Of a DNA stretch of 41,110 nucleotides, positions 7,432 through 30,010 are shown in pieces. How positions within the stretch are numbered: the first letter of the stretch is position 1; each line of letters opens with the position of its first letter. Source of the stretch: Escherichia phage smaasur; the sequence record MN850625.1. One strand, written 5' to 3'. The position numbers were made by a program, and so were the translations under genes. The notes beneath the pieces are model-generated. The model was not told where the DNA came from. It did no database searches and saw only the letters and a list, made by a program, of their open reading frames with translations.

Positions 7432-7692
7432 TTAACTCCCAATGCCGAGGTTGCTTGCTACACCCGTTCCGGTGCGGCGGCGTCGGCCCGACAGAGTATC
7501 GGAGGCAGAGCTAACCTGACCACCGGACTGAATCGTTGGGGTGTTATCGTTCGACAAGTCGGCTGCGAGGTTGGCCTGCATAGCCTGAGCCTTCACCTGC
7601 GCCGGGTCGGTCTTGATAGTGTACTTCGGGGCTTGGCTACCCAGTCCGAAGACAGAGCCAATACCTTTGAAAACTTTACCTACGCTACCCAT
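7432..7692 (-). CDS. small Gly-rich basic protein immediately upstream of portal (possibly gp7.3-like virion protein)
   Basis: 86 aa. C-terminus SGRRRRTGTGVASNLGIGS resembles my recollection of the T7 gp7.3 C-terminus; position before portal matches. Recollection-based. Confidence 0.4.
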   Translation of the reverse strand: MGSVGKVFKGIGSVFGLGSQAPKYTIKTDPAQVKAQAMQANLAADLSNDNTPTIQSGGQVSSASDTLSGRRRRTGTGVASNLGIGS

Positions 7693-8111
7693 TACGGTTT
7701 CTCCAAATCAATGAATCGGTACTCCTGAACATAAGGACGTACCATGTGGGAGTAACCGCACCAGCGCAACCCAGCTTGCCGGGCAGCGCGTTTGAGTTCG
7801 CGGAGGATGAGACGGGTCACTCCCCGGTTGCGATACTGGGGCCATACATACATGGCCATTACAACGGCGCACGGCCCCACATGAATATCGAACAGCTCAC
7901 CGAGATGAGCACAGCCCATGAGAGCACCGTCAGAATCATGGACGTACACATCTGTGCATCCGTTGGCGGTGGCATCATACATGGCGTCCACTATCACATC
8001 CCACGGTAAATCAGACCATTGGCGTTCATCCTGTATACCTTTGGCTACAGCAGTCCGAATGTCGATTGGCATCGTGGTGTGATGTATGTTGTCCACAACA
8101 GTTACTTTCAT
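7692..8111 (-). CDS. GNAT-family N-acetyltransferase (putative)
   Basis: 139 aa. AVVMAMYVWPQYRNRGVTRLILRELKRAARQAGL fits the GNAT beta4-alpha3 acetyl-CoA-binding pattern. Start ATG sits inside the repeated element ATGAAAGTAACTGTTGTG. Overlaps the upstream small gene by 1 nt (TAATG). Confidence 0.5.
   Translation of the reverse strand: MKVTVVDNIHHTTMPIDIRTAVAKGIQDERQWSDLPWDVIVDAMYDATANGCTDVYVHDSDGALMGCAHLGELFDIHVGPCAVVMAMYVWPQYRNRGVTRLILRELKRAARQAGLRWCGYSHMVRPYVQEYRFIDLEKP
8097..8111 (-). repeat. repeated element ATGAAAGTAACTGTT (copy 1, at the GNAT start codon)
   Basis: Exact 15-mer on the minus strand; extends to 18 nt (ATGAAAGTAACTGTTGTG, 8094-8111) shared with copy 4. Confidence 0.6.
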
Positions 8112-8376: not shown

Positions 8377-10809
8377 TTAGCAGAAGAATTTGGAGGATTT
8401 CTTGACCTCGTTGATATCCAACTGGCCCCGTGCTGGAGCTTCCTTAGAATATCTCACGGCAAGTTGTTGAATCGGGTCATTTTCCTCGTACATCTGCACG
8501 AATTTTTCACGGATGACTTTGTGCAGTAGACCTGCATGAGCTGCTGCAACACCGAACGAGTCATGAATGGATACCATGTACACCCCGTTATTCCACATCT
8601 CCCACAGGACTTTCGTCATGTGGCTGGCATCCATCGCATGTACAAAATTCGGAGCAATCGCAGCCGCGCATTTGCGACCGTCTGGCTTGTCGATGAACTC
8701 ACGCAGCTTGATGGCATGAACGCCCATCAGCTTGATACCCATAGTGGTCTCTTTGTGAGCCTGATACATGTTCACCACACGCAGACCAGACGGGGCAGTG
8801 AACTCCACATACTCACCGTTAGCCGCCGCCTCAGATGCGATAGCTTGCAGCCATGCCATCAGCTCAGCAGCCTTTGGCACCACGCGAGGAATTGCATCCC
8901 ACATGAACCCGGCGATGTACATTGCGCACTGGAACAGGGTGTACCCTTCCGGTAGCGGAGTGTTGTGCTCCCGTAAATACAGCGCATAGTAATCCACCAT
9001 GCCGTGGCGTGTCGCACCGTACACATAAGTCATCACAGGCTTCTTAGCCATACCGCGCTCTATGCCAGTCTGTATGAGCCACGAACCCAAGACAGTAGGG
9101 TTGGTTGCCTCTGCTTCCTTCAACGCCTCCAGAGCCGCCGTAGCGGTCTTAACGTAGATGTCTGCCTTACGTCCTACTGAATCAATCAGGTTAACCGCAG
9201 CCCCGCCCACCTCGTCACGCAGCATTGCTGAGAGATGTTGCAGACCTGAGCACGTCGCGTCCCACTGTGTCACCACACGGCACGGATACTCTTCCGGGTT
9301 CCCGCTATCCAGCGCACGCACCAGCTCTACCGCAGCCGCCCATGCACACAGTGGGCTGTCAGCCTCAGACCAGAATGAGTCGTATGCCTCTGGCAGACGG
9401 CAAGCCTCGCGCAGTCGCGGCATTGTCTTGTCCGTCCATGCCGCCCGGTCTTCAAAGTCTGTGGAGTCATAGCCGAAGCAGTTGGCCACATGAACCTTCA
9501 ACCAGAACAGACCCTCCTTACCAAGCGGCACCGGGTCAGCCAGCTCAAGCAAAGCACGAATCGCGTCAATGCCTTGCGGGTTCAGGGATGTGGCATAGTA
9601 GCAACGGCCACGAGTGTCGGCGTATGTCGGCAGGTAGATTCGCTCGTACACTTTGTACTGCTCAGCCTCACGCAGCGCACTGCTCAGCGCCTGAATCTGC
9701 GTGGTGAACTTCTTCATGTCGTTGTGGTAAATGCGAGTCTTAACCTTGAACTCGTGCGCCTCAGCGTCCATGCGCTGCTGCATCTCAGCCGGGAACTTGC
9801 TGATGTACTGGCCGAACGTTACGCCTTCCGGGATAGTGAACGGCAGCTTAGGCTCCACTGGAGCAACAGGCAACCCCATCACCCCGGTTCTGTTGGCTTG
9901 TAAGAACTCCAGCACCATCTTGTTCACGCGGAACGGAACGTTTGACAGCATCATGCACGGCTCAATCATCGGTCGTGGGTCAATACCTAACTTGCGATAC
10001 GCCGGGTGCTTGAGCTTGCTGATTACCGCATACGTTGCCGCCTGCCCCGGAGAGTGCCACATACCGCCAAAGCCATTCGCACTGATTTGAGCTGGCGGTA
10101 TAATCAGCGGCGGGTAGCAACTGATGCCGAGGTGTGGCAGCTTCATCCAATCCTCAAGCATGATGAGCACATCGTCATGCAGAGCGAAGTGCGCAGTCGC
10201 CCGGTTCTTCAAGCTACCGCCCACTCGGACAGTCTTGACCAGACCAGTCGGCTCGACAGCACGCATCATCAACTTGCCGATTGTGATGAGCGCACGCTGT
10301 GGCAGGCTTTCAATCTCGACACCAACATTTGCCGAGGCAGCGCGTGCCTTGTTGTAGATGTGGTTTGGCGACTTAGACTTGGACTTATTCACGTCGCGGC
10401 GAACCCTCTCCATATACGCAGCCTCACGCTTACCAGCCCGCTCAGCTCGTGCATAGACTACCTCAGCCATCATTGCCTGCCCCATCTCGCGGAGCAGTTG
10501 AGTCACGGCGGTACGCCCGGTCGCGCCGGACACCGCCATGCTCAGGGCCAGAGACGCGCAGGTCTTGGCCCCGACTTCACGAAGGTACGTGCGGTACTGC
10601 GCACCGAACCCACGAGTAGTTTCGTTCAGGATATCCAGCATTGCAGCTTCGACAGTGGGGTATGCCTCAACCATCGCTCGCTGCAACAGTGGCACCGCCG
10701 AGGCGCGGCCTGAGTCTATCGCATCTCGTACGTTATCTAACCAGCCTGCCCGGTGACGGGCACGCGCCTCTTCTTCCAGTCGAATCTGTTCTGCCAGCAA
10801 ATCCATCAC
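8377..10809 (-). CDS. T7-like single-subunit DNA-directed RNA polymerase
   Basis: 810 aa. [20 protein letters not shown] matches T7 RNAP motif A region [32 protein letters not shown]...SIHDSFG matches T7 motif C region PNFVHSQDGSHL...IHDSFGT. Confidence 0.95.
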   Translation of the reverse strand: [810 protein letters not shown]

Positions 10810-10815
10810 ATCCCC

Positions 10816-11082
10816 TTACTCGTAGTCGTCTTTGTTATTCGGCACATCAATGAACGTAGGCTCAGAGTAGCCCGGCTGCACCTGACTGCGCAGCCCCAGT
10901 TCACGCAGTACCTGCCGCTGCAATACCGGGTCGCTCGTACCCGTACCGCCGCAGGCTTCACACTCACACAGTACAATCTCTTTATTCATCAGCATACTGT
11001 GGAAGGTGCCGCTGCCATGACAGGCACCGCACACTTTACCATCAACCACTGTATCATCAAGCACTTTTTGATAGCGACTCAT
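10816..11082 (-). CDS. small Cys-rich zinc-ribbon protein
   Basis: 88 aa with CGACHGSG and CECEACGG (Cys pairs suggesting a Zn-binding ribbon). Function unknown. Confidence 0.45.
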   Translation of the reverse strand: MSRYQKVLDDTVVDGKVCGACHGSGTFHSMLMNKEIVLCECEACGGTGTSDPVLQRQVLRELGLRSQVQPGYSEPTFIDVPNNKDDYE

Positions 11083-11656
11083 TACGTTTCCTCAGTTCCA
11101 GTTCCAGAATGAACAGCGCATTGCACGCTGCATGGGCCAGATGGTGCAGGCCAGATTCACTGTCCAGTTCCTCACCATTACCCACTGCCAGCAGGTGGCG
11201 TATAAGCGCAGACTTGTAGCGCTCCTGACCTTCCGGCACAGTCTGCCACGAATGGGCAGCGTACTTCTGAGCGCCGAACGTCAGCACCTCGCCGACTGCG
11301 GCCAGTGCGTTCGGGCACCCATCAAACAGCAGAGCCATACGTGGCTTGCCACCGTCGAACTTCATACCGCCCGGCCCGGCACCCTTGGCCACGGCCACCT
11401 CAACGTCATGCGCTGGGTCGTACGGGTCAACCGGGATGAAGTGTGTCTCCACCGCTTGCACCTCGTACGGCTCCAGCACCAGCAGATGAGTCTTCCCATC
11501 CTTCACGCAGGTGTAGTAATCGCGGCTATCGTTCGGCACATCGTACGGTTCGTCGTACGTCAGGATGATACCCTGCTCAGCAATGTCGCTCAGCAGCGTG
11601 CCAGTGCCCCAGTTGCGTGCCGGGTCTAAGATAAACTTCTGACCTTTCTTACCCAT
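11057..11656 (-). CDS. hypothetical protein (199 aa from MGKKGQ)
   Basis: ORF track gives 11057..11734, but the ATG at 11656 has a GGAGGT ribosome-binding site and abuts the upstream stop at 11649. No motif recognised. Confidence 0.5.
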   Translation of the reverse strand: MGKKGQKFILDPARNWGTGTLLSDIAEQGIILTYDEPYDVPNDSRDYYTCVKDGKTHLLVLEPYEVQAVETHFIPVDPYDPAHDVEVAVAKGAGPGGMKFDGGKPRMALLFDGCPNALAAVGEVLTFGAQKYAAHSWQTVPEGQERYKSALIRHLLAVGNGEELDSESGLHHLAHAACNALFILELELRKRNESLSKSA

Positions 11657-12176
11657 TCGCCTTACCTCCATCGACCTTATCGCCAGCACCATCATACTTA
11701 GCATTTGCGTGAACATACTCGTGATTGTCCTCATACCGGGTCACTTCATAAACCGTGATGCCGAGGCTGCGCATGAAGTCCACGATGTGCGGCAGGTCAT
11801 CAAAGGCACATACGATGTTTTCAATGCCAATGTCTTCCAGCGCAGCACGCTTCATCTCAGTGTCCTTACGGCAGTCGCCAACCTCACGCATGATGAGCTT
11901 GTCGTACACCACCCCATTATCGTCGAGCCATTGCTCAGTTACTTCACGGGCCACGGCCCCGCGTCCGGTCAGAATGACAATGCGATACGTGAGGGCCAGA
12001 GCGTTCACAATGTCAATCGTATCCTGAAACGCAGGGTCATCTGCACCTGCCAAGTTGAACTCGGCCCATGCTTCATCAAGGTGGCGTCGGTCGGGCGGCG
12101 GCAGCAGGTGCAGACGCCAGCGGCCATCAGCCAACGTCCCGTCGAGGTCTACCACAACGGTATCTTTTAAGTTCAT
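11649..12176 (-). CDS. HAD-superfamily phosphatase (5'-nucleotidase or polynucleotide 3'-phosphatase-like)
   Basis: 175 aa. N-terminal VVVDLDGTLAD is HAD motif I (DxDGT); ILTGR motif II; AFDD acidic motif IV. Has a GGAGAAAG ribosome-binding site. Confidence 0.65.
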   Translation of the reverse strand: MNLKDTVVVDLDGTLADGRWRLHLLPPPDRRHLDEAWAEFNLAGADDPAFQDTIDIVNALALTYRIVILTGRGAVAREVTEQWLDDNGVVYDKLIMREVGDCRKDTEMKRAALEDIGIENIVCAFDDLPHIVDFMRSLGITVYEVTRYEDNHEYVHANAKYDGAGDKVDGGKANG

Positions 12177-12354
12177 CTTGCGCTTTCTCCAGTGCTTTCA
12201 ACATGTCAGGGATGTAGCACCACGGCAGGGTAACTTCGTCGTCGCCCTGTCGTATGACTACAGTGTCTTCAACTACCTCCACCTGTGTCCGGGCCGTCCA
12301 TTCGACAGCCCAGCCATTGGCAGTGAGTTGGATTACGTCATCATCGTATATCAT
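12127..12354 (-). CDS. hypothetical small protein
   Basis: 75 aa ORF; start overlaps the stop of the upstream phosphoesterase gene and its 3' end overlaps the HAD gene start by ~50 nt. Confidence 0.35.
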   Translation of the reverse strand: MIYDDDVIQLTANGWAVEWTARTQVEVVEDTVVIRQGDDEVTLPWCYIPDMLKALEKAQDELKRYRCGRPRRDVG

Positions 12355-13475
12355 TCCAACATCTCAGGACTAATGGTGAAGCGAGCCACCTCACCGAACC
12401 GGGCGTGATAGGTAATCACGCTGGCACTCCGCTCACTTAACCACCCGCCGCGAGACGCATACGCATCCTTAGCCGCCAGCGTGCGGTGCTGCTCAACAAC
12501 CATAATCGGAGACTCCAGCACTTTCTTGTGGTGGAGGTGGCCGACGTGAGCGTAAGCATGTTTCGTTCTGCCATACACTTCGCGGTACTTGGCAACCAGT
12601 ACAGTCTCAAGCTGCTCGGCCTTACGCTTGTGACCGTGGTGGAAGAACAGCGCAGTCTCGCCGAACTCGTAGCAGTAGTACGGGTCAGGGTTACGGTCAA
12701 CCGTGACACGCGGCTCGTCTTCGTACAGTGCAGTCAGCAGCTCGCGCAGCCAGATGGAGCTGGCCATGTCATGGTTGCCCTCAGCACAGATGACGTGAAC
12801 CTGTGGGAACTTATCCAGCAGCATGGCAATGATGCGGCGCAGTGAACGAATAGCCACACGGGTCAGCTTCTGGAACCGGGTGTCGGCGTCCAGTACGTGG
12901 CCGCTTGATGGCGTCACTGCGTCCAGCCCATCCCAGTGCAGGAAGTCACCGAGCTGACCAAGCACAGCTACCTGCGCTGGCGGCGCTGACTCAATGGCGG
13001 CAGCGAACCACTTGACCAGTAGGTCTTCTGCAATCCGCATATCCCAATCAGCACCAGTCTCTTCAGCCCACGACAACATACCCAAGTGGTAGTCGGTCAA
13101 CACGAACAGGTCGAGCAGCTCAGCCGGGGCCGGGCCACGTCGGTACGGTCGTGGCAGCTCAGGTTTGATATCCTCGCAGATGGCATCGACTGCCTCCTGC
13201 AACAGCGCCAGCTCACGTTCATGGTCGAGCGCAGTCTTCACCCATTGCTGGACTACGTTGCCCTCTTTGTCATACAGCGTGGACGTACCCTTAATCATGT
13301 AGGGTTCGGGCACTTCCTTCGTCATGTCGTGTTCAGGACTCCAGCCACTCTTGGCGAGCTGACGCTTGCGATAACGAATAGCGCTCTCAGTCATGTCATG
13401 CTTGTCGGCGATTGCCTTGGTGCCGAGACCTTCGGCAATATCTTCTTTCAACTGCTGGTTCGACAGCTTCATCAT
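12351..13475 (-). CDS. calcineurin-like metallophosphoesterase with N-terminal helix-turn-helix-like region
   Basis: 374 aa. Metallophosphoesterase motifs in order: LTDYHLG (DxH), LGQLGDFLHWDG (GD), AEGNHD (GNHD/E), FFHHGH, GHLHH. N-terminal ~45 aa (GLGTKAIADKHDMTESAIRYRKRQL) looks HTH-like. Confidence 0.65.
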   Translation of the reverse strand: MMKLSNQQLKEDIAEGLGTKAIADKHDMTESAIRYRKRQLAKSGWSPEHDMTKEVPEPYMIKGTSTLYDKEGNVVQQWVKTALDHERELALLQEAVDAICEDIKPELPRPYRRGPAPAELLDLFVLTDYHLGMLSWAEETGADWDMRIAEDLLVKWFAAAIESAPPAQVAVLGQLGDFLHWDGLDAVTPSSGHVLDADTRFQKLTRVAIRSLRRIIAMLLDKFPQVHVICAEGNHDMASSIWLRELLTALYEDEPRVTVDRNPDPYYCYEFGETALFFHHGHKRKAEQLETVLVAKYREVYGRTKHAYAHVGHLHHKKVLESPIMVVEQHRTLAAKDAYASRGGWLSERSASVITYHARFGEVARFTISPEMLE

Positions 13476-13804
13476 TTCCCCTTAGTGATTACGGCACGCG
13501 CTCTCGCTGCTGCGGCCTTCTTACGTTTCGCGGCTGCGGCTTCCTTCTTCTCAGCCTCCGTCTTATGCGTCGGATACATCAACCCGGTGTGCTGCTTACG
13601 CCGCCACTCAATGGCGCTGTCCAACCAGTCGTCCACCGTGCGCTGGCGCTTGGCTCGGTTGGCAGAGTTCTCTACCTTACCGAGCTGCGCATTGCACCAG
13701 CGGCAGATGACACCGCGTATTTCCCCAGTCACATGGTCGTGGTCAACAACCATGAGCTTGAGGTCAACCATTGGTTCATTACAGAGTGGGCAAGGACAAC
13801 CCAT
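13472..13804 (-). CDS. endonuclease VII-like (HNH/DHDH) Holliday-junction resolvase
   Basis: CPLCNEPM...VVDHDHVTGEIRGVICRWCNAQLG matches the T4 endonuclease VII pattern (CxxC, DHDH, G.VRGLLC..CN). Start uncertain: 13804 or 13852, both overlapping the exonuclease gene. Confidence 0.75.
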   Translation of the reverse strand: MGCPCPLCNEPMVDLKLMVVDHDHVTGEIRGVICRWCNAQLGKVENSANRAKRQRTVDDWLDSAIEWRRKQHTGLMYPTHKTEAEKKEAAAAKRKKAAAARARAVITKGK

Positions 13805-14756
13805 CGCACTCTTCCGTAGGTGCAGCAGTGTCGCGCCAGTCACTTTCCTCATACCACTTCTCCATCAATTTCTTGTGGAGCCACACACGCAGCTCCTTGC
13901 TCAGAGTCAGCGTGTTCAGGTGAGCGGCGAATGTATACTCCGGCGTGCGCAGCAGCCACAGGGCCACGGCTTCTGGCCACGGGTTCTGGTCTTTGGCCAT
14001 GTACTCCCGCAGTACCAGCTCGGCTACTGCTGACTCATCCTCGGTTTCCTGATAGCTCTCCAGTAAATCCCACGCTCTTTGCTTGCCACACTTAACGAGT
14101 CCGGCTATGGCGTCAGCAGTATCGCCCATCAGCATCTGCGCCCAAAAGAATATTGGGCCGTGACCAATGAGAGACTTGTCACTCTTCGTCTCGTGCCACC
14201 ACAGCGTGCCGATACCCTTGCACGGCTCCAGCACCTTGTTGTCGTACGGGTCGAGGAAGCGCCCCGGCCAACAACGCAGGTCTTTGTCAGCGCTGTAGAT
14301 TACAGCGTGCTCCAGCCCCAGCGTCCAAGCGTCCATGATTAAGGTGTCGTCTGCCTCAACGTCGAAGTTCAGGTGAACGTACCAATCCTCGCCGTCCGGG
14401 ATATTGAACATGTTGCGGCCAATAGCTTTACGCAGTGGCTCGACCAACCCCGGCTTCCGGTCTTTATCACGGTTGCTCTGGTACAGCTTGACACCGCGCA
14501 GCTTGTACCGCCCAGCCTTCTTGCACTCAGCAGCAGTCAGCTCGATACGAACCGACTGAGCATTAGCAAGGAACTTGGCAGTCAGGACGCCGGAGCAGAA
14601 GCGCGTTTTGGCTGTCTCGATGTTCTTCGTTGTGGCTGCGGCCACATACACTGTTGAGTCTGCGTCGCAAAGAAGTACGCGCCCCGCAACGTATCCGTCA
14701 AATTGGTCTTCATCAATCGCTCCGGCTGTCGCCAACAAGCGCTGCAATCTGCTCAT
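13779..14756 (-). CDS. 5'-3' exonuclease (T7 gp6-like, FEN family)
   Basis: 325 aa. SADKDLRCWPGRFLDPYDNKV and MGDTADAIAG resemble recalled T7 gp6 SCDKDFKTIPNCDFLW and KGDITDGYSG. Confidence 0.85.
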   Translation of the reverse strand: MSRLQRLLATAGAIDEDQFDGYVAGRVLLCDADSTVYVAAATTKNIETAKTRFCSGVLTAKFLANAQSVRIELTAAECKKAGRYKLRGVKLYQSNRDKDRKPGLVEPLRKAIGRNMFNIPDGEDWYVHLNFDVEADDTLIMDAWTLGLEHAVIYSADKDLRCWPGRFLDPYDNKVLEPCKGIGTLWWHETKSDKSLIGHGPIFFWAQMLMGDTADAIAGLVKCGKQRAWDLLESYQETEDESAVAELVLREYMAKDQNPWPEAVALWLLRTPEYTFAAHLNTLTLSKELRVWLHKKLMEKWYEESDWRDTAAPTEECDGLSLPTL

Positions 14757-14910
14757 CGACTCTCCTTAACACTTCGTTCTGAAACATCTGCCTGAGCGTA
14801 AAGAACATGTCGTAGCTCATGGACACTGTTTCGCGGCGGCTCTTGATTACCATGCTCATGCTCTTGGGGTCGTCATAGTAGATGACCTCTCTTTCATCAA
14901 GCTCTCTCAT
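14713..14910 (-). CDS. hypothetical small protein
   Basis: 65 aa ORF between the 301-aa gene and the exonuclease; overlaps the exonuclease start. Confidence 0.3.
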   Translation of the reverse strand: MRELDEREVIYYDDPKSMSMVIKSRRETVSMSYDMFFTLRQMFQNEVLRRVDEQIAALVGDSRSD

Positions 14911-14945: not shown

Positions 14946-15851
14946 TTACAGGCTCGGCAGGCCGAAGTCAGCATCGCCAGTCACGTCAGGCTCCGGCGAG
15001 GTCTCGGTCGCACCCTTCTTACCACCCTTCTTGGTAGGCAGTTCCTCCGGCTCCGGCGTTACTTCCTTCGCTTCCTCCTGCGTCTCTTCCAGCTCAGGCA
15101 GCTCAGAGATTGCAGAGCCAGCGCCGCCGCCATTCAGCAGCAGGTCAAGCGGAGAGCCGGGATACTCAGGGCTGGACAGCAGAGCGTCCTGAATCCAGTT
15201 CTTGGATTTACCCTCGTCGTTCTTCCCTTCAATGTACAGGGATTCCCAGTCTTCCTTGGTAGGACGGTTCCACAGGAACAGCTTGAACAGAGACTCGTCC
15301 TCAACCTCCGGCACATCGAACGGCTCATCAGTCACCGGGTTAACTGCGAGGCTGATGTTCTCAAGGTCGATGTTGGCGTACACCTTCTTGTTCTCGCCCT
15401 CGCCTGATTCGTTATGCACGATAGGCAGGATGAACGTATTGTTCAGGAGCTGAGCGAAGTGCTTCGCAGTCTTCTCCGGGTTCATACGCTTGAACAGTTT
15501 GTACGCGCCGGACTTACTGTTGAGGTCTTTCTTAACAGCAATGAACTGCGTGCGTACAATGCCCGGCACCATCTTGCCATCCACCACCTCGTGGTAGGTG
15601 GAAGTCTTGTCCTTGCCCTTACCCCACACTGCAAACTTGAGGAAGAACTTATTGACAGGCGGCTTGCTTGCGTCCTGCTTAATAGGCTGCGGCCCGATTT
15701 CCACATACTGAATCAGGCGAGCCAGTGCCTTACCTTCCGGCATCAGCTTACCGCCGCCACCGGACACGGCTTCGTTAAAGTCTACGCCTTCTTCTTCAAC
15801 GAACTGTTCAACGATGGTGTTAAAGCGATTCAATACACTCGGCTTAGTCAT
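14946..15851 (-). CDS. hypothetical protein with acidic C-terminal tail (possible ssDNA-binding protein)
   Basis: 301 aa, Lys-rich body with a Glu/Asp-rich C-terminal tail (ELEETQEEAKEVTPEPEEL...DADFGLPSL). Sits beside the DNA polymerase. The SSB assignment is inference from the acidic tail and location only. Confidence 0.35.
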   Translation of the reverse strand: MTKPSVLNRFNTIVEQFVEEEGVDFNEAVSGGGGKLMPEGKALARLIQYVEIGPQPIKQDASKPPVNKFFLKFAVWGKGKDKTSTYHEVVDGKMVPGIVRTQFIAVKKDLNSKSGAYKLFKRMNPEKTAKHFAQLLNNTFILPIVHNESGEGENKKVYANIDLENISLAVNPVTDEPFDVPEVEDESLFKLFLWNRPTKEDWESLYIEGKNDEGKSKNWIQDALLSSPEYPGSPLDLLLNGGGAGSAISELPELEETQEEAKEVTPEPEELPTKKGGKKGATETSPEPDVTGDADFGLPSL

Positions 15852-18337
15852 ATCTCGATACCCTTAGATTTCAGAAAGTTACGTTTGAACTCCAGCACTT
15901 CTTCGGCTGTCGTCTCTACGTGGTGCTTCTCATACATGCTTGGGCCTGCTTCCACCTCTGCCGGGAACGGCACCGTCAGGTCATACTCAGGCCAGATGTG
16001 GTTGTAGTATTCCGGGATGGATTCCATGATTGCCTTGAGTCCAACGAAGAACTCGTGAGGACAGTCAGGTGCCACGTCGAAATAGAATGCGTCATGCACT
16101 TGGTTGATGGGAACCACACGCCCACCAAAGAAGTCATTGCTCAGCAGCCAGCGGAACAACAGGCCACCGATACCCTGCACCCAAAACGCGGTCTCACCCT
16201 GAATCGGATAGTTACGCATTTGGGTTGGCTTGTACTCCATCAAATACCCACGAGCTGCGCTGTTCCATTTCTCGTACTGACGGAATGAATAGCAGGTGCC
16301 ACCCGGAGATTTGTAGAAGCCACGGCGGTAGACGCACCACCGTCCATTCTCATCCTGCTCCTTGAACACATTGCTCTGACCGGACTTCTCCACTGCCGGG
16401 AAGATAACCTTGTCGAACCATGCTTCCACTTCTGGAAACAGACTCTTCTCGTTGTCGATGAATGCCTGTGCCTCTTCCTCAGTACAGCCAGTGGAGTACG
16501 CGATGCCTCGCGCTGTCGCACCGTACTGATATGAGAATGCCTTCGGCTTGATATCGGTACGCATCTGGCTATAGCGTTCGTGGTCAGGGTGGGATTCATC
16601 CTTCGCCTTACGCTTCACCTCTTCGTAATCTTCCTCAAGCTGCGCGGCTAGACGCATACAGTGCATGTCGATGTTATCCATCAGAGCCTTAACGAGATTC
16701 TTATCCTTACTGAATCCCGCCAGCCCTACTACTTCCAGCGCCGAGTAGTCAGCCTCGACTATCCTGCCGCCCGGCCCGAACCGGGAGGTGAACATCTGCT
16801 TAACTTTACTCGTACCTTTACGCGGAAGGTTCTGGCTATTCGGTCGTGCCGATGATAAGCGAGTGGTCTCCGTCGCAGTCATGTTAATGGTGTGATGTAC
16901 AATCCCATCCGGCTGGATGAACTGCATCATACCTGACTGGCCAGTGACGTTACCCTCTTCGTCGAAGGTCTCACTCAAGTAGTAGGTGCCGAGGTCTTTC
17001 TGTGACTTGGCACGTTCAGCGATTTCAACCACACCGGGAATCTTACGGGCAGCCAGAATCTCCAGCACCTCACCCGCCGTACTGAACACAGGCGTGCCGT
17101 CAGCCAGCTTGCGCTTGCCTACCCAGTCACCTGTGCGCCGGAGATATTCACCCGGACGCTTCGGGTCTTCCCATACGAGGTTGTCTGCTATCTCCTTCGC
17201 TCGTCTGTCCTTGTCGCGGAGCAGACCGGGCAGCGGGTACAGCACATCGCCCCACTTGGTGTCCACCTCATCTGTCGCCAGCTTCTCGAACTTAGGCTCG
17301 CCCTTGAACTTGCCTGCCGTGTACAGAGTTTGGTGTACCTTCTCAACCGGGTCATACCATAGCCCGGACTCTTCATCGAACTCGCACTCTTCCTTGTGCT
17401 TCAACCACTTCTCCTTGCCACGCTTGAACAGCGGAGCATCCACCTTCACGTAGATTGGATTGCCGTCTGCATCAGTGCGTGGTACGCGGGTCGTATACTT
17501 CATGACGCCGCCGAAGACGAACGCTGACATGTGGTATGCCGACGTGAACTTGAACTGGTTACGTGCTTCCTCCGGCATATCGTCCGGCAGGTAGTCCAGC
17601 AGCTTCTGTGTCAGCTCGTCAATCTGCGTGCGTAACTCCTGACGATTCCGCTCAGCCACTTCACGGTCAACGTGCAAGCCGCTGTGCATCATGTACGCCC
17701 ACATCAGCATCCCTTCCATACGGGTCAGTGCCATCGGCAGCATACCTTGTTTGGTAAGCTCAGCCCACTGCCCGACGAACACCTTCGTGGTGTTCTCGAT
17801 ATCGCCGCTCGGCCCGGACAGGTACTCACTCAGCAGCTCCGGGTCAATCTGGCTGGTCAGATAACCTGACTCCCACATTGCCTTGACTGCATCCACCTTG
17901 TGAGTACCGCCGTACTTCGGCGCGGTTTCGTTTAACGATGGGTACTGCGATTGCTGGTGAGTCAGCAGGTACTCTGCATACGCGGTACAGAATACACGGC
18001 CACCTCGTTTGAGGAATGCAGTGAACTCGTCACCGTAATGCAGGAACCACCAGCTCAGTTCGTACGGCGCGTTGTGTGCCACCAGTATGTTCGTGTCGGG
18101 GTGCAGGTGCAGACTCTTGTTCTGCAACCAGTCTTCCCTTGACGTGTACCGATACTCTTCGCGCTCGTAGAACTCCCAGCCATTCTTCGTCAGCACACAA
18201 TCGCGCTGGCCTTGCATCACGACGTAGTTGTCCGGGCAGCGTGGAGATGCCAGCTCACCGTACCAGTCATGGTTCTCGGTCTCAACGTCAATGACCTGTG
18301 CTCGAATTGCCATTACCCCTCCGCTATGCTGTGCCAC
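15848..18337 (-). CDS. family A DNA polymerase with N-terminal 3'-5' exonuclease domain
   Basis: 829 aa. Pol I motif A (ADYSALEVV), motif B (KPKAFSYQYGATARG), motif C (QVHDAFYF); N-terminal DVETEN exo I-like motif. Confidence 0.95.
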   Translation of the reverse strand: MAQHSGGVMAIRAQVIDVETENHDWYGELASPRCPDNYVVMQGQRDCVLTKNGWEFYEREEYRYTSREDWLQNKSLHLHPDTNILVAHNAPYELSWWFLHYGDEFTAFLKRGGRVFCTAYAEYLLTHQQSQYPSLNETAPKYGGTHKVDAVKAMWESGYLTSQIDPELLSEYLSGPSGDIENTTKVFVGQWAELTKQGMLPMALTRMEGMLMWAYMMHSGLHVDREVAERNRQELRTQIDELTQKLLDYLPDDMPEEARNQFKFTSAYHMSAFVFGGVMKYTTRVPRTDADGNPIYVKVDAPLFKRGKEKWLKHKEECEFDEESGLWYDPVEKVHQTLYTAGKFKGEPKFEKLATDEVDTKWGDVLYPLPGLLRDKDRRAKEIADNLVWEDPKRPGEYLRRTGDWVGKRKLADGTPVFSTAGEVLEILAARKIPGVVEIAERAKSQKDLGTYYLSETFDEEGNVTGQSGMMQFIQPDGIVHHTINMTATETTRLSSARPNSQNLPRKGTSKVKQMFTSRFGPGGRIVEADYSALEVVGLAGFSKDKNLVKALMDNIDMHCMRLAAQLEEDYEEVKRKAKDESHPDHERYSQMRTDIKPKAFSYQYGATARGIAYSTGCTEEEAQAFIDNEKSLFPEVEAWFDKVIFPAVEKSGQSNVFKEQDENGRWCVYRRGFYKSPGGTCYSFRQYEKWNSAARGYLMEYKPTQMRNYPIQGETAFWVQGIGGLLFRWLLSNDFFGGRVVPINQVHDAFYFDVAPDCPHEFFVGLKAIMESIPEYYNHIWPEYDLTVPFPAEVEAGPSMYEKHHVETTAEEVLEFKRNFLKSKGIEI

Positions 18338-19007
18338 CCAAATGGTCGGGCATACGATTCACGTACTCCTGAATGCGTGGCAGCAACTTCTCGTGCTTCT
18401 CTAACATGTAAGCCAGACGACTCATGCTCGCATCCGGTCGGCATACACGCAGGGTCAGCAGGTCGTCGTAGCTTTCTACCAGACTGGCCAGCGCCGGATA
18501 CCACTGCACATCCTCGGCAGTCAGCTTCGGCTCATACGGGTACGCCATGAAGTCACCGGGGTCACGGCTGTACTGGCCGGAGTAGCGCGGGATACTGGAC
18601 GGGAAGTAGAACTGGTTCAGGTTGAAGTCGAACTCGTTCAGCACCTGTGACCAGCAGCCGCACTTACTGATGATGATATCGACCGGGCCAACTTTGTACA
18701 CGCCGTACAGTCGAGAGCCAAAGTCGCCGCCCTCTTCTGCGTCGTGGTAACTCGGCATGTACTCATAGGCCAGCCTGTGCTCAGCAGCCCAGTCCTCCAG
18801 CCGGGAGTCCAGCCAGTCCAGTCGGCGAGCAACGCGCTGCACGTCACCGCCCCAACCGAACACCACGATATCAAAGTCCTTCGGGTCTACACCAAGCGCG
18901 GTGTCTCGTGCCCCACCCCCTGCAACGACAAAGCTCAGCTCTTCGCCCTGCAACAGCCGACAGATTTCCTCTGCCCACACGCGCTTGAAGTCGTTATCAC
19001 TTGTCAC
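18324..19007 (-). CDS. Pol-beta-superfamily nucleotidyltransferase with CCA-adding-enzyme-like head motif
   Basis: 227 aa. VVAGGGARDTALGVDPKDFDIVVF matches the class II tRNA nucleotidyltransferase / poly(A) polymerase head signature GGxxRDxxLGxxxxDxD; a third acidic residue follows at PVDIIIS. Confidence 0.55.
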   Translation of the reverse strand: MTSDNDFKRVWAEEICRLLQGEELSFVVAGGGARDTALGVDPKDFDIVVFGWGGDVQRVARRLDWLDSRLEDWAAEHRLAYEYMPSYHDAEEGGDFGSRLYGVYKVGPVDIIISKCGCWSQVLNEFDFNLNQFYFPSSIPRYSGQYSRDPGDFMAYPYEPKLTAEDVQWYPALASLVESYDDLLTLRVCRPDASMSRLAYMLEKHEKLLPRIQEYVNRMPDHLGGTA

Positions 19008-26837: not shown

Positions 26838-27369
26838 AGTTATTTCTCCAGTTATTGGCTATTTTCAGGTGGATAGTGAACCCATTGTGACGCGCCGTAC
26901 AGTCTGCACTCAGTGGCATTGATTGGCTTGTCGGATTCACTACCCTGAAAAATCGCCCCGCCCATTTCGCGCTGTGGATATTGTCTGCATCCACTCTCAG
27001 GAGTCTTCCAGCAGTCCGTCGCGTATCTTGCTCACCGTTGCCAGCTAACAAGCCGTTTGACTACCCACCCGCTATACTCCGCGCCTTATAAGACGTTCGG
27101 GATTGTACTGATACTGCGCTGCGTCTATCGCGCTTCTCCGTTCCCATGCACCGGGCGCTACCCCTATTGCCTTTCGGCGGTGCCTCACCCAGTTCCAACC
27201 TGCGGCGGATACCCAGTGAGCCGTGACACTACGCGGCCAGTTTGCGTTCACTCAGAGCAGGATGCTTTCCATCCTTTCAACTCGGTGCTGATTTCATCAT
27301 ATCTGAATCAGCTTGTCAACTACTTTTTACTTCTGACTGACTGGCTTGCTACCCGTCAATCTGGAGCGT

Positions 27370-27398
27370 ATTACAGCATACTCATTTCACCTTGTCAA
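27370..27398 (-). promoter_or_regulatory. candidate host sigma70 early promoter (minus strand TTGACA-17-TGTAAT)
   Basis: On the minus strand: TTGACA (plus 27393-27398), exact 17-nt spacer, TGTAAT (plus 27370-27375). Points toward the early genes. Confidence 0.5.
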
Positions 27399-27506
27399 CC
27401 GTTTTATTCAGCGCCCATTCTGAGATGAATAACCCGTACCAGTTCGCCTGCGTGTGTTTTAACGTCTTTATCAATGACTGTTTAGCTTGCTGGCTGACGT
27501 GGAAGC

Positions 27507-27535
27507 ATTACAGCATAGTGAGCTTGCCTTGTCAA
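27507..27535 (-). promoter_or_regulatory. candidate host sigma70 early promoter (minus strand TTGACA-17-TGTAAT), second copy
   Basis: Same architecture: TTGACA (plus 27530-27535), 17-nt spacer, TGTAAT (plus 27507-27512). A weaker third candidate is TTGACA (27313-27318) with TGAAAT (27290-27295). Confidence 0.5.
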
Positions 27536-28971: not shown

Positions 28972-29357
28972 TACATCCCCATAATGCTTGTGATAAAGGA
29001 CTGGAGCGCTGTGAGGTCGCCAGCCTTAATTGCCAGATACACACCGCTGCACAGGGATGCGGTTAACAGGCACCATTTGACGGCATGTGCTGCCGCCGTA
29101 AACAACTTACCGATATGGCTCATAGTTCTCTGGATATCCTGAATCTGCTCGACCACCAAGAGCTGCTGCTGAACCTGCTGCCAGCGCGAGTCGTTCTCAG
29201 CCAGCTTCGTGAGCATCGCAGCGTCGCCTTTCTCAAGGTTAGCGATTTGCACTTCGTGTTTGTCGAGGCGTAGTTCTACGGTCTGCATACGAGCCTCCAC
29301 TGCACCCATACGCGAGTGGATGTTAGGAGTCGGCTCCTTTCGTTTTGCTTCCGTCAT
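28971..29357 (-). CDS. lysis-cassette membrane protein (holin candidate): N-terminal coiled-coil region plus C-terminal hydrophobic segments
   Basis: 128 aa with strong GAGGAAGG ribosome-binding site. Hydrophobic stretches LFTAAAHAVKWCLLTASLCSGVYLAI and LTALQSFITSIMGM. Sits between the spanin-like gene and the endolysin. Holin role is inferred from position and topology only. Confidence 0.4.
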   Translation of the reverse strand: MTEAKRKEPTPNIHSRMGAVEARMQTVELRLDKHEVQIANLEKGDAAMLTKLAENDSRWQQVQQQLLVVEQIQDIQRTMSHIGKLFTAAAHAVKWCLLTASLCSGVYLAIKAGDLTALQSFITSIMGM

Positions 29358-29814
29358 CTCTTACCTTCCTCTTCCACGGAGATGGTACAAACCACATTAC
29401 CAAACCAAGAATACACGTAAGGCCCATGCCAAATGCCCACAATAAGCTGCGTGGGTCGCTCTGTGAGACGATAACAGTCTTAGCCTGTACGTTTCCTTGG
29501 GTCATCTGAGACCCCTGCTTAGAAGCGTTTACAGAGCCTCCTGAGACGTCCTTGACGGTCGTAGCGTTACTACCCTGTTTAGCGGTATCCACTTTCGCGT
29601 TACCTGATACGTCACCGACTTCGGTTTCGTCGGACTGTTTCGCAGTCACACCGATGCCTTGCTTCGTGTTCTCTGCACCTACCTGTGCCGTCAGTTCCGG
29701 CTTGTTGGGAGAGACAGCCGAAGTTACAGCAGACAGTGCGCTAGTTGCGGAGCAGCCCGTCAAAGTCAGAGACAATGAGAGGACTGCCCCGGCCAATAGC
29801 CGAGACAGTTTCAT
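29323..29814 (-). CDS. unimolecular-spanin-like protein (outer-membrane lipoprotein signal plus C-terminal transmembrane helix)
   Basis: 163 aa. N-terminal signal with lipobox LTLTGC; C-terminal hydrophobic helix LLWAFGMGLTCILGLVMWFV followed by basic residues; middle region has periodic T/K/Q/G repeats. Confidence 0.5.
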   Translation of the reverse strand: MKLSRLLAGAVLSLSLTLTGCSATSALSAVTSAVSPNKPELTAQVGAENTKQGIGVTAKQSDETEVGDVSGNAKVDTAKQGSNATTVKDVSGGSVNASKQGSQMTQGNVQAKTVIVSQSDPRSLLWAFGMGLTCILGLVMWFVPSPWKRKVRDDGSKTKGADS

Positions 29815-29824
29815 ACGCTACCTC

Positions 29825-30010
29825 TTATGCGTCAATGGCAGCCGTAGCTGCTTTAACACGGTCAATGTACACCTGATGCTCAGCCAGCAGGTCAGTGTCA
29901 GCCGTATTCAGGTGGTAGTCTTCCGTGTACACGTTGAGGTATTTGGCCAGCATGTTGCAGGCCGCCACCAGTTCCGCACGCTCAGCGGCGGTAGAAGTTG
30001 CTAAGGACAT
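29825..30010 (-). CDS. hypothetical small protein
   Basis: 61 aa ORF with GGGAGA ribosome-binding site; no hydrophobic segment. Confidence 0.4.
   Translation of the reverse strand: MSLATSTAAERAELVAACNMLAKYLNVYTEDYHLNTADTDLLAEHQVYIDRVKAATAAIDA

Follow-up and report, generated by a model that had tools for sequence, protein, structure and literature searches.

What is accomplished by an HAD phosphatase, a metallophosphoesterase (MPE) with a helix-turn-helix (HTH) segment at its N terminus and an endonuclease VII-type resolvase when their genes are kept together in a phage genome? The question is posed by positions 11649-13852 of Escherichia phage smaasur (sequence record MN850625.1), the 41,110-base stretch that was analysed as a whole and is called the window here. 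A first-pass annotation, made from the sequence alone, had grouped these three enzymes with a nearby nucleotidyltransferase and proposed either the healing of cleaved tRNA or RNA ends, or nucleotide salvage and host DNA breakdown. At odds that we put at about even (a probability of roughly 0.5), the block serves DNA breakdown, deoxynucleotide supply and the production of clean DNA ends, and not RNA repair. Deoxynucleotide supply is favoured because the phosphatase is constantly paired with a deoxynucleotide enzyme, because the window holds no kinase and no ligase, and because there is a precedent in T7, where gp3 and gp6 recycle host DNA into deoxynucleoside monophosphates (dNMPs).

Domain searches agreed with the first-pass calls of an HAD enzyme, an MPE and an endonuclease VII (PF25109, phrog_704 plus five MPE motifs, and PF02945, respectively). 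The HAD protein matches the Pfam family HAD_PNKP (PF25109; 57.5 bits against a cutoff of 27.6, E=2.1e-15) over residues 5-146 of 175, carries the nucleophile motif VVVDLDGTLA and matches phrog_415 (E=1.4e-54), and a sequence search of the PDB returned Pnkp1 (4XRP, E=3.5e-8) and the phosphatase domain of T4 Pnkp (1LTQ, 5UJ0). Across 24 aligned members of the family, residues D10, D12, T14, R21, R72, D105 and D126/D127 do not vary. The DVDGT motif of the T4 phosphatase-domain chain 5UJ0 supplies the counterparts of D10 and D12 (T4 D165 and D167), a HMMER alignment to T4 Pnkp places R72, D105 and D126/D127 opposite R213, D254 and D277/D278, and R21 is paired with T4 R176 on the strength of its distance beyond the DVDGT motif; the T4 set D165, D167, R176, R213, D254 and D277/278 is essential for 3'-phosphatase activity. 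A phosphatase-only relative of Pnkp is indicated because the protein has 175 residues and no kinase domain, because its match to phrog_505 covers only C-terminal positions (159-291 of 295), and because members of its family have 150-240 residues. As judged from its sequence, the protein is a stand-alone, kinase-less 3'-phosphatase of the T4 Pnkp type with all of the catalytic residues kept, and, since the kinase domain is missing, the name 'polynucleotide kinase' given to it in RefSeq is wrong. The likeness to the C-terminal phosphatase domain of T4 Pnkp (PseT) lies in the DxDxT motif and in the equivalents of R176, R213, D254 and D277/D278; unlike T4 Pnkp, the window protein has no N-terminal P-loop 5'-kinase domain and no RNA ligase partner, and is accompanied by nucleotide-pool enzymes instead.

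The gene neighbourhoods of this protein were obtained from an HAD-anchored scan analysed with hidden Markov models (HMMs), in which its clade comprises 56 loci at an identity of at least 44%. Downstream of the HAD gene, a T4 gp1-type dNMP kinase gene is present in 38 of the 56 loci and a gene of the DUF5664 family in 15, one or the other being found in 53 and both in none, a pattern that the salvage and host-DNA-breakdown alternative of the first-pass annotation fits. Among more distant HAD loci, none of 24 had an MPE, dNMP kinase or DUF5664 partner. An MPE gene lies within 2 kb upstream of the HAD gene, on the same strand, in 33 of the 56 clade loci. The gene orders, examples of which are borne out in annotated phage records, are as follows.

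Bonnellvirus/LIMEzero type, 5 loci: FEN-type exonuclease, endonuclease VII, MPE, a 75-residue open reading frame (orf75), HAD phosphatase, DUF5664 protein, Q-like protein, RNA polymerase
Other phiKMV-like phages (e.g. Drulisvirus), 11 loci: FEN-type exonuclease, endonuclease VII, HAD phosphatase, DUF5664 protein (in 10), RNA polymerase; without the phrog_704 MPE
Siphophages of ~44 kb and ~50 kb with Kagunavirus- and Webervirus-type order, about 25 loci: MPE, HAD phosphatase, dNMP kinase
Siphophages of ~50 kb, probably Drexlerviridae, about 10 loci: HAD phosphatase, with dNMP kinase 0.5-2 kb downstream; MPE distant or not found
PP99/ECBP5-type podophages, 2 loci: FEN-type exonuclease, endonuclease VII, MPE, HAD phosphatase, dNMP kinase, DNA ligase

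The kinase that adjoins the phosphatase in relatives could be imagined as a lost polynucleotide kinase, the other half of a 'split Pnkp'. This was rejected, for the relatives' kinase profile has the T4 gp1 dNMP kinase as its best solved match (1DEK, E=6.3e-9), and the 60 matches displayed include no Pnkp kinase domain. A second candidate, the 184-residue third gene of the Kagunavirus cassette as a DUF5664 homologue, was also set aside, as BLASTP returned nothing meaningful and the gene is a dNMP kinase. In the window itself, HMMs built from relatives (E-value limit 10) detected no ligase and no P-loop kinase, in agreement with the first-pass annotation, and the annotation of the closely related phage J8-65 includes no kinase or ligase. 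The place of the kinase is taken in the window by a 225-residue protein that matches PF18909 (dGTP_diPhyd_N) over residues 123-218 (E=1.1e-32; 112.4 bits, cutoff 27). A stand-alone DUF5664 protein of Arthrobacter phage Wayne converts dATP, dGTP and dUTP into the corresponding monophosphates (PMC12884076), and by likeness to that enzyme the window protein is a probable deoxynucleoside triphosphate (dNTP) pyrophosphohydrolase.

The second enzyme, the 374-residue MPE, matches phrog_704 (E=8.6e-148) and has no Pfam or NCBIfam match of its own; among 38 close homologues, 16 match Pfam Metallophos at E<0.01 (best E=2.7e-5). The five metal-binding motifs (DxH, GD, GNH[DE], H and GHxH) are invariant or nearly so in these 38 sequences, and correspond in the window protein to D128/H130, G176-D177, G233-N234-H235-D236, H279/H280/H282 and G312-H313/H315. 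Many family members also match HTH families (GerE, HTH_23, HTH_28, HTH_1, HTH_8), and an AlphaFold model (mean pLDDT 78.5) places a three-helix bundle at residues 6-42, followed by a beta-hairpin (59-83), a linker helix and a catalytic core from residue 120. These matches and the bundle uphold the N-terminal HTH recognised in the first pass, which implies DNA binding. The core adopts a generic calcineurin-like fold, whose best structural matches include the nucleic-acid MPEs Mre11, SbcD and PolD DP1 (structure-match figures of 13.4 for MJ0936, 13.2 for Mre11, 12.9 for the Pol delta B subunit and 12.7 each for PolD DP1 and SbcD; Foldseek TM-scores of 0.3-0.4). Searches of the PDB with the single sequence and with a profile gave no match, and the protein has no sequence-level similarity to Mre11, SbcD or PolD DP1; it also differs from Mre11 and SbcD in its HTH, which is not known from either protein. 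By analogy with these enzymes, the MPE is a probable DNA-directed phosphodiesterase or nuclease. Its RefSeq name, 'DNA repair exonuclease', is a putative assignment for a family that is, judging by these searches, uncharacterised.

Three of the most conserved stretches of the MPE family (137-143, 182-197 and 336-347) are the sole segments of the AlphaFold model with a pLDDT below 50, and conserved residues in and around them include W136, E139, G141, D182-G183, T188-P189, D196, D198, D337 and R342-G343-G344. Loops that are conserved yet modelled with low confidence may become ordered upon binding, which suggests that these are substrate- or partner-binding loops, ordered only when bound.

The MPE family is common and widely dispersed. 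Of 8000 candidates scored, more than 6299 proved to be homologues, 2053 of 50,697 phage records (~4%) contain a match, and the phages that carry it infect hosts as different as Escherichia, Klebsiella, Salmonella, Vibrio, Campylobacter, Flavobacterium and Rhodobacter. Identity to the window protein is 52-65% in the 80 viral contigs that match best, most of which have no other detectable gene in common with the window. Its neighbours are highly variable: 909 proteins from 78 loci fall into 578 clusters, the commonest of which occurs in 15 of the 78 loci. An obligate partner was therefore rejected, and no Rad50/SbcC-type partner is conserved among the 909 neighbours or named in the J8-65 annotation. 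The commonest neighbours are genes of the lambdoid nin region (NinB/Orf, NinG/Rap, endonuclease VII/HNH and a Q-like protein), so that where the MPE has company, it is mostly that of recombination functions. A Q-like gene of a different PHROG (phrog_79) adjoins the MPE in the lambdoid contigs, as one of phrog_6060 lies near it in the window.

Adjacency of the MPE and HAD genes spans at least four lineages: the Bonnellvirus/LIMEzero-type and PP99-type podophages, Drexlerviridae and Kagunavirus. An MPE-anchored scan found an HAD gene in 7 of the 50 loci that had enough flanking sequence; set against the 33 of 56 HAD loci with an MPE, this makes the link asymmetric, in that the HAD clade usually brings an MPE and the MPE mostly travels alone. 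Identities of the two proteins between lineages are not congruent, the overall correlation being driven by within-lineage pairs, and a single joint transfer history, in which the pair moves as one unit, is thus unsupported. It is probable from these comparisons that the pair was assembled more than once, which can be argued to reflect selection on the linkage, identity matrices being a weak basis for this argument.

The siphophage loci provide a parallel. In Drexlerviridae and Kagunavirus, genes annotated as 'DNA repair exonuclease', 'polynucleotide kinase' and dNMP kinase are homologous to those of the block and stand in the same order on the same strand (identities to the window of 40-55% for the MPE and about 45-50% for the HAD protein). 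They differ in their third gene, which encodes a T4 gp1-type dNMP kinase where the window has DUF5664, and the window has in addition the 75-residue reading frame that separates MPE and HAD. Work on Drexlerviridae reported the order MPE, polynucleotide kinase, dNMP kinase, also proposed nucleotide supply, and found the MPE family to be persistent across these phages (PMC13164509); the 'DNA repair exonuclease' of Drexlerviridae is equated here with the phrog_704-type MPE because the Tunavirus and Webervirus loci show it to be so. In the Kagunavirus Escherichia phage vB_EcoS_SCS44 (ON001686, 5759-8158), the cassette forms a moron-like island of four genes on the opposite strand inside the tail-gene module, encoding a superinfection-immunity protein, the MPE, the HAD phosphatase and the dNMP kinase. 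Its position within the tail genes means that the MPE-HAD cassette can exist outside a replication operon.

In Drulisvirus, represented by Escherichia phage Minorna (NC_048172), a 326-residue MPE is encoded at 28978-29958, just after the polymerase gene and 3.5 kb from the adjacent HAD-DUF5664 pair, which itself adjoins the RNA polymerase gene. This MPE was considered as a member of the same family and rejected, as it belongs to phrog_221 and has no profile similarity to the window MPE.

The window is a complete, circularly permuted genome of a Bonnellvirus podophage. The genes around the block are listed below in transcription order, from the nucleotidyltransferase to the RNA polymerase, with an acetyltransferase gene of the same strand added at the end.

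18324-19007, minus strand: nucleotidyltransferase (227 residues), first in the transcription order of the region
15848-18337, minus strand: DNA polymerase
14946-15851, minus strand: 301-residue protein, phrog_862, unknown function
14713-14910, minus strand: 65-residue open reading frame
13779-14756, minus strand: FEN-type 5'-3' exonuclease (325 residues), phrog_107 'exonuclease', E=8.4e-59
13472-13852, minus strand: endonuclease VII-type junction resolvase (126 residues), PF02945, phrog_423
12351-13475, minus strand: HTH-metallophosphoesterase (374 residues), phrog_704
12127-12354, minus strand: 75-residue open reading frame between MPE and HAD, unknown function
11649-12176, minus strand: HAD phosphatase (175 residues), PF25109, phrog_415
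11057-11734, minus strand: DUF5664 protein (225 residues), PF18909
10816-11082, minus strand: 88-residue zinc-finger 'Q-like' protein, phrog_6060
8377-10809, minus strand: RNA polymerase, last in this order
7692-8111, minus strand: GNAT-family acetyltransferase (139 residues), Pfam Acetyltransf_1, E=1.4e-7

From the exonuclease through the Q-like gene, successive genes overlap by 4-86 nucleotides. Promoter-like and terminator-like sites occur in the block only at chance frequency (scans for sigma-70-type promoters and intrinsic terminators), a direct-repeat search found no phage-promoter family there, and the block reads as one transcription unit. The flagged genes are best placed as the distal end of the middle, DNA-metabolism operon of the phage. 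Positions 11000-14800 are 94.7% identical in nucleotide sequence, at full coverage, to Escherichia phage J8-65 (Autographiviridae, Bonnellvirus), in which gp21-gp26 (RefSeq NC_025445) are the same genes in the same order with proteins 86-100% identical to those of the window. Each J8-65 gene is cross-referenced to Pantoea phage LIMEzero, where the block is conserved as gp25-gp31; nothing of substance differs from the window in either phage, and only the RefSeq product names are questioned here. The genes of the block are thus real and conserved, not chance reading frames. The first-pass view that the HAD and MPE genes are not core genes of the T7 group is true of T7 itself, and fails for the Bonnellvirus lineage, in which the block is kept back to LIMEzero.

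Endonuclease VII matches PF02945 (E=1.7e-13; 50.7 bits, cutoff 23.6) and phrog_423 (E=3.2e-32), and its zinc-binding cysteines and H-N-H type motif can be read in CPCPLC...DHDH...CRWCN. It is the ordinary junction resolvase of phiKMV-like phages and no specific partner of the MPE-HAD pair; of the cluster put forward in the first pass, the pairing of HAD and MPE stands, and the membership of endonuclease VII as a specific partner does not. The first pass had also used an internal start, its coordinate 13804 corresponding to Met17 of a longer reading frame that extends to 13852; the protein is annotated with 126 residues in J8-65 and with 110 in phage megetsur. The FEN-type exonuclease shows a weak, below-cutoff match to the C-terminal SAM-fold of the Pfam family 5_3_exonuc, and is named 'exonuclease' in J8-65 (gp21). 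The 75-residue reading frame, which the first-pass annotation had left unmentioned, has no match in Pfam, PHROG or PADLOC, corresponds to J8-65 gp24 and is kept solely in Bonnellvirus/LIMEzero relatives (12 loci).

On the reading favoured here, the FEN-type exonuclease, endonuclease VII and the HTH-MPE would be three nucleases that cut, resolve and trim DNA, resolving branched replication intermediates and degrading DNA, chiefly the host chromosome. The HTH-tethered MPE would most likely act as an Mre11/DP1-like phosphodiesterase on DNA. The kinase-less HAD phosphatase would remove 3'-phosphates from DNA ends or from 3'-phosphorylated mono- or dinucleotides, leaving 3'-OH ends and 5'-dNMPs, and the DUF5664 enzyme would turn dNTPs into dNMPs and so may balance or sanitise the pool. 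It is these substrates, and the salvage of host DNA as the role of the block, that we infer from the enzymes and their neighbours. The presence of the MPE among the recombination genes NinB, NinG/Rap and endonuclease VII/HNH in lambdoid contigs is in keeping with such a role. Several points weigh on the other side. The MPE lacks an HAD gene in 43 of the 50 MPE-anchored loci, and many HAD genes, such as those of Drulisvirus, lack a phrog_704 MPE; where a phage operon is packed this tightly, neighbouring genes are weak evidence for a joint pathway; the HAD protein's relatives of solved structure act in RNA repair; and enzymes of the MPE and HAD families have their roles assigned from sequence alone. 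In addition, the reactions of a dNMP kinase and of a dNTP pyrophosphohydrolase run opposite to each other, so simple salvage fails to explain why the two should be interchangeable.

Whether the nucleotidyltransferase belongs with these enzymes bears on the alternative of RNA repair. This protein matches phrog_1614 (E=3.8e-44) and has a class II head motif, VAGGGARD...PKDFD, that is invariant in seven homologues; its match to residues 36-69 of E. coli poly(A) polymerase is non-significant (E=0.19), and against TIGR01942 it scores 19.6 bits where the cutoff is 305. Its gene lies 6.5 kb from those of the MPE and the HAD phosphatase. A scan anchored on it returned 18 viral contigs, 16 of them Autographiviridae-like by matches to RNA-polymerase and replication genes. 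Nine of the 18, all of the Bonnellvirus/LIMEzero or PP99 type, carry MPE and HAD genes, eight lack both and one is too short, and the nucleotidyltransferase is absent from every siphophage MPE-HAD cassette among the HAD-clade loci. Co-occurrence confined to close relatives gives no linkage beyond common ancestry, and its inclusion in the set by the first-pass annotation is not sustained. A comparison within Phimunavirus likewise found the nucleotidyltransferase and a polynucleotide kinase-like gene anti-correlated, in different members of the genus, and lists a metallophosphoesterase, by name, among the common genes (PMC6115819).

RNA or tRNA end repair would have the phosphatase, with or without the MPE as a 2',3'-cyclic phosphodiesterase, heal the 3' ends of cleaved tRNAs, and the nucleotidyltransferase, as a CCA-adding or poly(A)-polymerase-like enzyme, rebuild them to counter host tRNA nucleases. 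Its appeal comes from the nearest solved relatives of the HAD protein, since Pnkp1 and T4 Pnkp are RNA-repair enzymes, from the class II GGxxRD...DxD motif that the nucleotidyltransferase shares with CCA-adding enzymes and poly(A) polymerase, and from the E. coli CCA-adding enzyme, which couples 3'-end healing to CCA addition. Nonetheless, of the parts of an RNA repair system the window has the phosphatase, with no 5'-kinase and no sealing ligase of either RNA or DNA type found; the kinase that adjoins the HAD gene in relatives is of the dNMP kinase type; and the nucleotidyltransferase is remote from the pair, missing from the siphophage cassettes, present in eight Autographiviridae-like contigs without HAD and MPE, and anti-correlated with the kinase-like gene in Phimunavirus. 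The end-healing alternative of the first-pass annotation is therefore not borne out, and RNA repair is regarded as very unlikely. Healing of DNA ends is less easily set apart, as it overlaps with the favoured reading and the two are computationally hard to separate. The phosphatase would unblock ends on which host nucleases, lyases or defence DNases have left a 3'-phosphate, the MPE would trim damaged ends, and the phage polymerase, the FEN-type exonuclease and a ligase would finish the repair. An ATP-dependent DNA ligase does accompany the FEN-type exonuclease, endonuclease VII, MPE, HAD and dNMP kinase or DUF5664 genes in the PP99/ECBP5-type phages and one other contig, the arginines by which T4 Pnkp grips a terminal 3'-phosphate are conserved in the HAD protein, and the HAD gene lies in the window within a replication/recombination operon. 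Neither the window nor the siphophage cassettes contain a ligase, however, and the constant partner of the phosphatase is a nucleotide-pool enzyme, not a ligase, so that DNA end-healing as the main function is held to be unlikely.

It could also be that the enzymes share no pathway and are independent accessories that gather where the replication operon ends, at a site of variable content. Between endonuclease VII and RNA polymerase, different Autographiviridae-like phages indeed have varying mixtures of MPE, HAD, dNMP kinase, DUF5664 and ligase genes, the MPE is usually alone, and the identities of MPE and HAD between lineages are incongruent. It is those same incongruent histories, however, that make adjacency in one order and on one strand in at least four unrelated lineages hard to ascribe to chance collection, one case being an island outside any replication operon; the mutually exclusive dNMP kinase or DUF5664 gene beside the phosphatase in nearly every clade locus also speaks against this idea, which is considered quite improbable. 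A role in nucleotide counter-defence draws on a bacterial system, PUA-Calcineurin-CE-HAD of E. coli ECOR28, in which a coupled cascade takes dNTPs through deoxynucleoside diphosphates to dNMPs and the calcineurin part is replaceable by MazG-like enzymes (bioRxiv 10.64898/2026.01.15.699771). The MPE and HAD phosphatase would then dephosphorylate nucleotides in two steps or destroy those used in signalling, either mirroring that system or protecting the phage from dNTP-depletion immunity. The likeness lies in the pairing of a calcineurin-superfamily enzyme with an HAD phosphatase and in the MazG-like alternates; the moron-like position of the Kagunavirus cassette beside a superinfection-immunity gene, and the unusual conservation of the MPE across otherwise unrelated phages amid highly variable neighbours, would suit such a function. 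The bacterial system differs in serving bacterial defence and in having a PUA sensor domain and a capped type I (C1) HAD, whereas the window HAD best matches the Pnkp phosphatase domain. In addition, no Pfam domain apart from the HTH was found in the MPE family, and that HTH argues for DNA over small-molecule substrates. PADLOC gave no match for MPE or HAD in its 2023 release, which may omit PUA-Calcineurin-CE-HAD; it gave one weak match for endonuclease VII and one for the dNMP kinase of a relative. The likeness amounts to an analogy at the level of enzyme superfamilies only, and counter-defence is, like RNA repair, given little credence.

A phage MPE of another family invites comparison with that of the window. 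Mycobacteriophage A10ZJ24 gp48 is expressed early and damages host DNA (PMC12287305), which speaks for the reading of DNA breakdown. Its motif I aspartate is at residue 10, leaving no room for an N-terminal HTH, its host belongs to a different phylum, and the likeness to the window protein drawn here is one of enzyme type.

A more speculative view, regarded as rather unlikely, is that the HTH-MPE, the kinase-less phosphatase and either a dNMP kinase or a DUF5664 pyrophosphohydrolase, which exclude each other, make up a mobile cassette of three enzymes by which the deoxynucleotide pool is controlled during infection. With similarly modest expectations, this cassette might have been assembled repeatedly by unrelated phage families and be the phage-side counterpart of calcineurin-HAD defence modules. 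How it would control the pool can be put forward no more firmly: host DNA might be channelled into dNMPs, or immunity based on dNTP depletion might be countered.

Other features of the window deserve mention. The most AT-rich region of the genome (GC 0.48) has, at 27291-27535, three direct repeats of ~29 nucleotides that end in CTTGTCAA and are spaced 79 and 137 nucleotides apart. The repeats lie upstream of the early genes, close to where the genome probably ends, and are likely to be early promoters or operators. The Q-like protein, encoded directly upstream of the RNA polymerase gene, has two CxxCxGxG zinc-finger motifs and matches phrog_6060 'anti-termination protein Q-like' (E=1.7e-19). 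The GNAT acetyltransferase gene lies shortly downstream of the RNA polymerase gene, and its J8-65 counterpart is annotated as hypothetical. The 301-residue protein has a weak, sub-threshold match to the NGO0469 phage replication initiation family (25 bits, cutoff 75). It and the FEN-type exonuclease are the only two reading frames in the whole six-frame translation with an LP[ST]L C terminus, their tails reading ...GDADFGLPSL and ...ECDGLSLPTL, respectively. Comparable acidic tails recur in Bonnellvirus/LIMEzero relatives and are absent from the sampled Drulisvirus-type contigs of ~43-45 kb. The motif resembles beta-clamp-binding peptides such as QLSLPL, and from its sequence it could be a common docking peptide for one replisome partner.

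The block is already known at the level of annotation, its gene order having been described for several phage groups, and in that sense it is real but ordinary. Less ordinary are the wrong 'polynucleotide kinase' name, the commonness of an uncharacterised MPE, and the near-perfect, mutually exclusive pairing of the phosphatase with one of two dNMP-related enzymes. The widely propagated RefSeq label does not suit the HAD family, the members of which appear from their sequences to be phosphatase-only, and 'DNA repair exonuclease' labels a family found in ~4% of sequenced phages that has no sequence relative among solved structures. Unlike the textbook case of tRNA repair by T4 Pnkp, a phosphatase of this type that is paired with a deoxynucleotide-pool enzyme points to nucleotide supply. 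If it is true that the MPE and the HAD phosphatase form a functional unit, a role would be assigned to a very common phage gene pair, members of which occur in Klebsiella and E. coli phages that have therapeutic use.

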